A model generated the notes under the pieces. The model had not been told where the DNA came from and ran no database searches. It saw only the letters and a list, made by a program, of their open reading frames with translations. Of a DNA stretch of 64,000 nt, positions 8,778 through 9,983 are shown one piece after another. Position 1 is the first letter of the stretch, and the number at the start of each line of letters is the position of its first letter. A program made the translations under genes and the position numbers. The stretch covers positions 3,872,001-3,936,000 of the forward strand of contig OY761159.2 of the NCBI GenBank assembly GCA_963664395.2, written 5' to 3'. Source of the stretch: Candidatus Binatia bacterium. GTDB taxonomy: Bacteria; Desulfobacterota; Binatia; Bin18.

Positions 8778-9982
8778 GGCGAGGGAAGGGAGAGAGCGAT
8801 GGCGAAGGAGCGGTTTAAGCGGACGAAGCCGCACATGAATGTGGGGACGATCGGGCATATTGACCATGGGAAGACGACGTTAACGGCGGCGATCACGAGC
8901 GTGTTGGCGGAGCAGTCGATGGCGGTGGCGGTGGCGTTTGACGAGATTGACAAAGCGCCGGAGGAGAAGGAGCGCGGGATCACGATCAACACGGCGCACG
9001 TGGAATACGAGACCGAGCAGCGGCACTATGCGCACGTGGATTGTCCGGGGCATGCGGACTATATCAAGAACATGATCACAGGGGCGGCGCAGATGGACGG
9101 GGCGATACTAGTGGTTGCGGCTTCGGATGGGCCGATGCCGCAGACGCGGGAGCACATTTTATTAGCGCGTCAAGTGGGGGTTCCGGCGATTGTCGTGTTC
9201 ATGAACAAGGTAGACATGGTGGATGATGAGGAGCTACTGGATTTAGTGGACTTGGAGATGCGGGAACTGCTGTCGAAGTATGATTTTCCGGGCGATGAGA
9301 CCCCGATCATTCGGGGGAGTGCGCTGCGGGCCTTAGAGGGGGAAGCGGAGGGGAAGGCGCAAGTGCTGGAGTTGATGGCGGCGGTAGACAGTTTTATTCC
9401 CGAGCCGGCGCGGGAAGTGGACCAAGAGTTTTTAATGTCCGTGGAGGACGTGTTTACGATTTCGGGGCGGGGGACGGTGGCGACGGGGCGCGTGGAGCGG
9501 GGGCGGGTCAAAGTGGGGGAAGAGGTAGAGATTGTGGGGATTCGGGAGACGCAGAAGACGACGGTGACCGGGGTAGAGATGTTCCGCAAGCTGTTAGATG
9601 AGGGCGTGGCGGGGGACAACGTGGGCTGTTTACTGCGGGGGATCAAGCGGGAAGAGATTGAGCGGGGGCAGGTTTTGGCGAAGCCGGGGAGTATCACGCC
9701 GCATACGAAGTATGAAGCCGAAGTGTATGTGTTGACGAAAGATGAGGGGGGGCGGCACACGCCGTTTTTCAATGGATATCGGCCGCAGTTTTACTTTCGG
9801 ACGACGGATGTGACGGGGGCGGTGACGTTGCAAGCCGGCACGGAGATGGTGATGCCGGGGGACAACACGCAGATGACGGTGGGGTTGTTGACGCCGATTG
9901 CCATGGATGAGGGGTTACGGTTTGCGATTCGAGAGGGAGGACGCACGGTGGGCGCGGGCGTCGTTACCAAAATCTTGGAGTA
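8778..9982 (+). repeat. Direct repeat copy 1 (21-nt 5' leader + tuf), matching 22614-23818
   Basis: No difference seen by eye, and overlapping-frame ORF translations are identical; match starts at GGCGAGGGAAGGGAGAGAGCG and ends inside the stop codon (TAA vs TAG). Confidence 0.93.
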
Positions 9983-9983
9983 A
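8799..9983 (+). CDS. tuf: Elongation factor Tu (tufB position)
   Basis: [35 protein letters not shown]. Confidence 0.99.

Follow-up and report, generated by a model that had tools for sequence, protein, structure and literature searches.

Why should one pair of genes end most of its codons in G when the genes on either side, read from the same strand, do not? The question is raised by the two copies of tuf, the gene for elongation factor EF-Tu, in the window analysed here, a stretch of 64,000 nucleotides (nt) from contig OY761159.2 of Candidatus Binatia bacterium. Copy 1 (tuf1, 8799..9983, + strand, 394 amino acids (aa)) and copy 2 (tuf2, 22635..23819, + strand) are direct repeats 13.8 kb apart that flank rpoB and rpoC (rpoBC). 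Both open reading frames (ORFs) match EF-Tu over residues 1-394 (NCBIfam TIGR00485, 754 bits with a cut-off of 522.4). Their 1182 coding bases are the same, and they diverge only at the last position of the stop codon, TAA in copy 1 and TAG in copy 2. An earlier note on this DNA had drawn attention to an extreme G-rich, C-poor skew of the sense strand in both genes. Its hand counts proved exact: among the first 60 tuf codons 27 of the 28 four-fold degenerate ones end in G, compared with 6 of 27 in rpsG, and phenylalanine is encoded by TTT 10 times and by TTC 3 times.

We measured the skew as the share of each base at four-fold degenerate sites (G4, C4, A4 and T4) and set it against crude ORFs of the 5.04-Mb genome (57% GC; 4336 ORFs, 4294 of them with at least 50 four-fold codons). 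At the 200 four-fold sites of tuf the shares are G 0.800, C 0.115, A 0.055 and T 0.030, and the overall GC skew of the gene is +0.38. Mean G4 over the 4294 ORFs is 0.326 (standard deviation 0.065), which places tuf at z = +7.2. The two tuf copies rank 1 and 2 in G4, and the next ORF reaches 0.644; with an effective number of codons of 34.4, tuf ranks second among the 3772 ORFs of at least 150 aa. The genes between the copies (rpmG, tRNA-Trp, secE/nusG, rplKAJL, rpoB, rpoC, rpsL and rpsG; 9984..22613, + strand) serve as an internal control for strand, operon and expression, and they are unskewed. Across the same-strand neighbours, that is nusG, rplKAJL, rpoB, rpoC, rpsL, rpsG and the genes from rpsJ onward, G4 lies between 0.17 and 0.40, and rpsJ begins 6 nt after tuf2 yet has a G4 of 0.33. 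The four-fold-site skew is +0.75 in tuf and about +0.07 in the neighbours, and G4 and C4 together amount to 0.92 in tuf compared with about 0.5 in neighbouring genes. Highly expressed genes that are single-copy or diverged are ordinary as well (G4 of 0.23 and 0.37 in groEL, 0.30 in rpsA, 0.30 in tsf and 0.39 in an EF-G-like gene). The skew of tuf is a real, extreme and gene-specific anomaly and, as described below, a recurrent one. The earlier note was right that neither GC bias nor the codon choice usual in highly expressed genes accounts for it. Since the neighbours do not share it, a replication or transcription skew does not account for it either; the replication-linked four-fold-site skew is only about 0.1 between strands, with tuf on the leading strand.

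The bias has a characteristic anatomy. G-ending codons make up 0.85 of the GCN box, 0.85 of ACN, 0.94 of CCN, 0.76 of GGN, 0.76 of CGN and 0.72 of GTN, and for Glu, Lys and Gln the G-ending codon has a share of 0.67-0.80 compared with about 0.5 elsewhere in the genome. Pyrimidine-ending two-fold codons are unremarkable (TTC 0.23, TAC 0.25, ATC 0.43, AAC 0.71), and tuf fails to show the C-ending preference at Phe, Tyr and Ile that is expected under translational-selection codon bias. Leucine is encoded by TTA 9, TTG 9, CTG 7 and CTA 2 times and never by CTC or CTT; the AGR codons of arginine are absent. In all 18 skewed genomes of the class that were compared, the purine share at four-fold sites is higher in tuf (0.67-0.93) than in the flanks (0.39-0.57), compared with 0.31-0.49 in tuf and 0.36-0.49 in the flanks of 15 unskewed genomes. 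The constant signature of skewed tuf genes is a transversion-type shift toward purine. Furthermore, G is raised over A (0.77 versus 0.45 at purine-ending codons), and the C/T ratio at two-fold sites shifts in either direction, depending on the skewed genome. The bias is maximal in the first 20 codons (0.90-0.98), and the gene contains 41 runs of GGG or longer versus 2 of CCC. An effect on the protein itself is not supported. Amino-acid changes driven by the skew had been suggested, with VGLLTP as the example; the net change in G over the seven consensus replacements is 0 at codon positions 1-2, and the position filled by Gly in VGLLTP varies freely across the class, where E, K, D, S, T, A, N, Q and G all occur.

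The trait is old. All 18 congeners share it, with a tuf G4 of 0.565-0.893 and flanks of 0.21-0.34 where flanking codons sufficed, as do 4 genomes of 2 other genera of the source family (0.785-0.853). Skewed tuf genes occur in 8 further families of the class (f2, f3, f6, f7, f11, f12, f14 and f16; G4 0.59-0.87), and in families f4, f8, f9, f10, f15 and f17 G4 is 0.24-0.45 with C preferred. In sister families the single-copy tuf favours C over its neighbours, for example with a C4 of 0.57-0.65 compared with 0.45-0.52. On the EF-Tu tree skewed and unskewed clades are interleaved; the rows of family f1 stand together, and their sister is f2, from the same order. Between congeneric species 74-198 of the 1185 nt of tuf are different, yet the bias is kept and must therefore be actively maintained and not merely inherited. 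A recent xenolog was ruled against, without donor comparison, since the EF-Tu tree follows the grouping into families and orders, giving no sign of such a transfer, and all congeners share the trait.

The skew goes together with the number of tuf copies. The class sample comprised 79 genomes with 80 tuf rows, and we called a gene skewed when its four-fold-site skew exceeded 0.4. Two copies and skew were found together in 34 rows, a single copy without skew in 39, and a single copy with skew in none; six two-copy rows fell below the threshold, and the skewed genome G048, of ambiguous copy number, was counted separately. Of the single-copy rows, 14 rest on an assembly that is complete or nearly so, or on a verified locus, and the other 25 on drafts in which a single tuf was seen. 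In four skewed drafts that likewise showed a single tuf, the assembly had collapsed two copies or joined them into a chimera: G023 and G094 have tRNA-tuf fused straight to rpsJ and a separate contig that stops on both sides at the expected tuf, in G035 one contig starts with the last 39 codons of tuf, and in G124 a contig ends directly after fusA. Single-copy lineages have retained different copies, the str-type copy in f8, f9 and f10 and the tRNA-linked copy in f4, f15 and f17, so that at least two separate losses must have occurred; all these lineages are unskewed. G064 has lost the tRNA-linked tuf, since only 318 nt, without a tuf, separate tRNA-Thr from the next genes, tRNA-Trp and nusG. 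Its remaining tuf has a G4 of 0.30 and a C4 of 0.55; its two-copy family mates G041 and G124 have a G4 of 0.74 and 0.70, respectively, and a four-fold skew of +0.8.

A similar relation is seen outside the class. In a sample of distant bacterial records from outside the phylum, 79 of 80 could be scored for G4, and copy number was tallied in 60 named records, leaving out 11 low-GC records (G4 <0.21), L036 and L063, both flagged as unpublished, and L096. A G4 of at least 0.6 was reached by none of the 25 single-copy and 8 of the 35 two-copy records (Fisher p = 0.016), and a G4 of at least 0.5 by 1 of 25 and 17 of 35 (p = 0.00015), both values uncorrected for relatedness. The sole skewed actinobacterial record (titled Microthrixaceae) carries at least two tuf copies on one contig. 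L091 comes nearest to a counter-example, with one copy found, a G4 of 0.552 and an excess of 0.21 above its flanks; L096, outside the tally, has one copy with a G4 of 0.495 and a C4 of 0.09 between flanks of 0.386 and 0.198. Records titled Burkholderia have a tuf G4 of 0.51-0.55. In the phylum outside the class we profiled 24 of 60 fetched loci by overall GC skew. Seven of the eight genomes with one copy found show no excess, and the eighth, G272, is of ambiguous copy number. The skew reaches +0.52 in G229 and G296. G220 carries its two copies in inverted orientation at a distance of 1.7 Mb, and both have a sense GC skew of +0.30 with flanks of +0.04 to +0.14, so that neither direct orientation nor close spacing is required.

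The earlier note had tied the skew to being a repeat. Of the findings that it named as refuting this, none was observed: highly expressed single-copy genes and the single-copy tuf of relatives are free of the skew, and a recent xenolog finds no sign in the EF-Tu tree. For tuf this stands in so far as every skewed row counted in the class has two copies, and falls short in that duplication is insufficient; as a statement about repeats in general it fails. Four-fold sites within intragenomic repeats have G 0.432 and C 0.377, compared with 0.329 and 0.380 in unique genes, and in 45 of 60 within-gene comparisons the repeated part has the higher G share. However, one superfamily dominates the pooled figure, and only 27 of the 63 repeat families have more G than C at four-fold sites, most being unskewed, so that we rejected the skew as a general property of repeats. 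The superfamily in question consists of 88 genes for putatively secreted proteins with a repeated domain of about 110 aa, and its repeats, taken at a minimum identity of 75%, add up to about 103 kb. Example loci on contig C1 of the source assembly (G000:C1) are 2457230-2458897, 4503251-4505758, 930198-936773 and 113353-113820. Its sense-strand G excess is milder (G4 0.47-0.65) and occurs on both genomic strands; the claim that the skew is confined to tuf has to be relaxed for this family. Proteins with leucine-rich (LRR) and fibronectin type III-like (FN3-like) repeats are also encoded on the contig.

Compared with each other, the two copies evolve in concert by gene conversion, paralogues being far closer than congeneric orthologues. 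Of 29 two-copy genomes, 27 show 0-3 differences between their copies, G017 shows 11 and G013 shows 26. In the window, identity runs from 21 nt upstream of the start codon through the gene and extends 0 nt downstream. Judged by this comparison, the common 21-nt leader (8778..8798 in copy 1 and, identical, 22614..22634 in copy 2, both + strand) marks the 5' edge of the homogenised unit; in 27 relatives the identical leader is 2-48 nt long, and in one it is 102 nt. The leader is purine-rich, as had been remarked, and it contains the ribosome-binding site, so its richness is uninformative alone.

Young changes reveal the direction of mutation. Singletons among the four copies of the sister species G013 and G017 comprise 16 G>A, 5 C>T, 2 G>C, 3 A>G, 4 T>C and 1 C>A, and none of the young T>C changes lies at a third position. 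Per site, G>A (16/269) and C>T (5/78) are about equally frequent in this small sample, without strand asymmetry. New changes run away from G, so that selection or biased conversion must bring the G-rich state back at fixation. The cause is a fixation bias and not mutation input, which speaks against deamination-type changes and against the single-stranded DNA exposure proposed in the earlier note. The bias runs from AT to GC in the face of input from GC to AT, as under GC-biased gene conversion; the equal favouring of G and C that goes with that process is lacking (G 0.80 versus C 0.115).

The best candidate that we can offer for this bias, proposed rather than demonstrated and put forward tentatively, is strand-asymmetric biased gene conversion, or mismatch resolution, between the tuf copies. 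We infer conversion as the biased step, together with its polarity and the enzymes involved. Frequent conversion keeps the two copies identical, and a fixation bias would push synonymous sites to sense-strand G, or more generally to purine, only while two converting copies exist. The heteroduplex between the copies would form mostly with one particular strand, and heavy transcription or replication would determine this polarity. Mismatches would then be handled unequally: G:T would be corrected to G:C, purine:purine and transition mismatches would be detected and the exchange aborted, and pyrimidine:pyrimidine mismatches, C:C above all, would escape detection. Sense-strand-G alleles would in this way overwrite the other copy more often than the reverse. 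This reading is favoured by the concerted evolution of the copies, the tie between skew and copy number in the class and in other phyla, the absence of skew where a copy has been lost, as in G064, the young changes away from G, the purine shift common to skewed tuf genes, the signs of weak selection on synonymous sites in this organism, and the overlap of the 3' fade with the zone of residual copy differences. The polarity and mismatch steps gain plausibility from Salmonella tuf, where, in the sections covered, surviving conversions depend on the type of mismatch, G/A, C/T and T/T being poorly and A/C and G/T efficiently detected (PMC5485169). Yet more tentatively, strand-specific conversion in a duplicated and heavily transcribed tuf might be a force distinct from ordinary GC-biased conversion, one that drives sense-strand purines, mainly G, can override codon selection and arose repeatedly in several phyla wherever two converting tuf copies are present.

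Besides the ordinary composition of most other repeats, a series of observations weighs against this reading. The six two-copy rows of the class below the threshold are G022, G054, G130, both diverged copies of G047 and the congener G014 (+0.29). Two-copy records titled Dechloromonas, Azospirillum and Sphaerotilus lack the skew, and nine further two-copy genomes of the phylum sample show little or none; G294, G216, G256, G305, G231, G298, G303 and G340 have two copies without skew. Duplication looks necessary for the skew, but it is clearly not sufficient. G013 and G017, whose copies are the least homogenised, have the strongest skew. The tree implies at least four changes in copy number and at least seven in skew, but few independent contrasts: there are 2 such pairs on supported branches of the EF-Tu tree and 4 on all branches, too few for a test. 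Leucine moves from CTG to TTG or TTA (CTN to TTR) in 14 of the 18 skewed genomes compared, a shift that the conversion model does not predict. Conversion in Salmonella initiates uniformly and proceeds in both directions according to the sections covered (PMC5485169). GC-biased conversion that works through glycosylases treats G and C alike, so that the model needs an additional polarity as an assumption. Finally, all 22 genomes checked, with and without the skew, encode MutS, and its presence or absence was rejected as a discriminator. Two full-length MutS1-type matches were found in G000 (C1:817902-820430 and 4659381-4661831), two in G019 and one in each of the other 20 genomes.

The 3' end of the gene belongs to the same discussion. 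In all skewed groups the G-ending bias ends 15-21 codons before the stop codon, and positional codon counts place the fade zone of the window in the last 15 codons and the stop (9936..9983 in copy 1, 23772..23819 in copy 2, both + strand). The fade had been reported for the last 14 or so codons and is real (about 15), but it is not special to this genome. Differences between copies, collected over 27 genomes that are not mutually independent, number 17 in the stop codon, 10 in the last 45 nt and 5 in the remaining ~1140 nt; in the last ~45 nt the zone of residual copy differences thus coincides with that of the fade. As a further point against conversion, the last 20 codons are likewise G-poor and C-rich in 12 of 12 C-rich unskewed tuf genes of other phyla, single-copy ones included (G 0.00-0.31). 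The fade is therefore not assignable to the edge of a conversion tract alone and may reflect a universal constraint instead. In every outside-phylum tuf examined (L032-L106), C- and T-ending codons are far commoner in the C-terminal segment (window 9924-9983) than in the rest of the gene. This G-poor segment looks like a universal constraint at the nucleotide level.

Among the rivals to strand-asymmetric conversion, tuf-specific selection on mRNA or translation for G-ending (NNG) codons survives best, with copy number as a mere correlate; we regard it as possible, though rather unlikely. In one version each NNG codon is read by two tRNA species (C34 and U34), buffering EF-Tu synthesis when ternary complex is scarce, and in another the G-rich, C-poor transcript evades Rho or an RNase. 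The skew indeed looks codon-level, as two-fold pyrimidine codons are not consistently shifted and the AGR codons of arginine are unused although they are free of C. All C34 tRNAs are present, with one gene per anticodon, and the peak of the bias in the first 20 codons fits selection, as do the strong skew of the poorly homogenised G013 and G017 and the unskewed two-copy genomes, which show that conversion alone is insufficient. Against this stand the other highly expressed genes, which do not follow (ribosomal-protein genes, rpoBC, groEL, rpsA, tsf and the EF-G-like gene, all within 0.17-0.40), the single-copy tuf of sister families, which favours C over its neighbours, and G064, which reverted to C after the loss of a copy. 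Moreover, one 16S gene was found (C1:3734695-3736248), ARAGORN gives 49 tRNA genes with one per anticodon, and ribosomal-protein genes are more AT-ending than the genome average and lack a C preference at the two-fold codons for Phe, Tyr, Asn and Ile; with a single rRNA operon, single tRNA genes and no such preference, selection on synonymous codons should be weak. Selection for an unstructured mRNA was rejected, since tuf folds at a predicted -406.6 kcal/mol, no weaker than recodings with ribosomal-protein usage (-395 +/- 11); synonymous shuffles fold at -406 +/- 8 and a C-for-G mirror at -448 kcal/mol. Selection for NNG codons also leaves the occurrence of the skew in two-copy genomes only unexplained. 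Among the 49 tRNA genes ARAGORN calls a tRNA-Pyl(CTA) and a tRNA-SeC(TCA) on G000:C1.

Strand-asymmetric mutation, in which a sense strand that is often single-stranded (in R-loops, in D-loops or as lagging-strand template) loses C and gains G, is improbable. It would fit a skew on the sense strand, here also the leading strand, and the many G runs, and the shift of leucine from CTN to TTR is a synonymous C>T change. However, the young variants are symmetric and lead away from G, the share of T at four-fold sites is lowered (0.03) and not raised, and other genes of these operons show no skew even when they begin only a few bases after tuf. The single-copy tuf genes, presumably equally transcribed, are unskewed too, and no canonical G-quadruplex motif was found in tuf. 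The ordinary causes, that is a recent xenolog from a donor rich in third-position G, the usual translational selection or a replication skew, are very improbable: tuf is the most expressed gene in many bacteria and G-ending codons are common in the tuf of some GC-rich Proteobacteria, such as the Burkholderia records, but the trait follows families and orders on the EF-Tu tree, is shared by the congeners, the two other genera and a sister family, and persists between species that differ at many sites, while Phe, Tyr and Ile lack a C preference and the strands differ by so little.

Strand-asymmetric conversion remains our preferred reading, and the locus in which it would act is a classical translation super-operon with every gene on the + strand. 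The order is tRNA-Thr/Tyr/Gly/Thr, tuf1, rpmG, tRNA-Trp, secE/nusG, rplKAJL, rpoB, rpoC, rpsL, rpsG, tuf2 and rpsJ onward. The tRNA cluster 5' of tuf1 (Thr(TGT), Tyr, Gly(TCC) and Thr(GGT); 8233..8699, + strand, ARAGORN) gives copy 1 a tufB-type context, and an equivalent context is found in relatives. Copy 2 lies in a str-operon context without fusA: in the source family rpsG is followed after 285 nt by tuf2 (window 22349-22635), and other families of the class retain rpsG-fusA-tuf-rpsJ. An EF-G-like ORF is located about 0.8 Mb from the tuf region (G000:C1:3066658-3068688). The four-fold strand skew of G000:C1 flips near 2.1 Mb and 4.4 Mb, which places the ribosomal-protein/tuf cluster (3.88 Mb) closer to the terminus than to the inferred origin, about 1.75 Mb away from the latter. 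Opposite each tuf copy runs an antisense ORF of 200 aa (9170..9772 and 23006-23608, - strand), which stays open because G at the sense third positions excludes stop codons from that antisense frame; from the ORF list and codon-table reasoning we rejected it as a gene, since it is a by-product of the codon pattern without gene evidence. Such ORFs could trap gene callers. Contigs from RNA libraries of three studies contain pieces of window 8200-10700, although contigs cannot rank expression or show transcript ends. The 13 small contigs C2-C14 of G000 are 94-99.6% identical to segments of C1 and represent strain variants, not extra genome. In G093 a second tuf (C10:19537-20727) has 55% identity and 6 in-frame TGA codons, with 81% in an overlapping frame, and is either a decayed copy or a frameshifted assembly.

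Identical tuf copies also have a practical consequence. They cause chimeric joins (tRNA-tuf-rpsJ) in drafts, silently deleting about 14 kb with rpoBC. Joins of the type tRNA-tuf-rpsJ-rplC-rplD were seen in the relatives' drafts L163 (G023), L119 (G094) and L151 (G054), and a collapse of this kind puts the ~14-kb rpoBC segment on another contig. The gene is a standard marker and a reference for 'optimal' codon usage that calibrates codon-adaptation indices. If strand-asymmetric conversion is the true cause, inference of codon usage from tuf would be misleading in many two-copy lineages, and biased gene conversion in bacteria could be far stronger and more asymmetric than assumed. The tuf pair would then offer a natural and experimentally tractable system for the directionality of mismatch handling in recombination. 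A text search of the literature, with subscription journals outside its coverage, returned no description of a G-ending or GC-skew anomaly in tuf.

Among known systems, the closest is the concerted evolution of tufA and tufB in Salmonella and E. coli by RecA-dependent gene conversion, where, like here, the two copies are near-identical while species diverge. In the sections covered, the homogenised unit is likewise bounded by the gene and mismatch type affects the survival of conversions, as we propose for the present pair, and these sections contain no sense-strand G enrichment (PMC5485169); here 80% of four-fold sites are G, with the copies 13.8 kb apart. Codon bias by translational selection resembles our case in the very low effective number of codons of a gene expected to be the most expressed. 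It differs in that the bias is here unshared by ribosomal-protein genes, tsf, the EF-G-like gene, groEL and rpsA, favours the atypical codons GGG for Gly and CGG for Arg, and runs in a direction opposite to that in the single-copy tuf of the class. Transcription or replication asymmetry and the purine loading of mRNA likewise put G over C and purine over pyrimidine on the sense strand. Transcription-associated asymmetry extends over an entire transcription unit and raises T as well as G; the skew found here is far larger and restricted to one gene within its operon, T is not enriched, and single-copy tuf is unskewed. GC-biased gene conversion shares with the tuf pair a third-position GC content that is raised only in the converting gene, G favoured over A, and an opposite mutation input. 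It favours G and C alike, however, whereas here C is depleted seven-fold relative to G and leucine moves from CTG to TTG, against GC.

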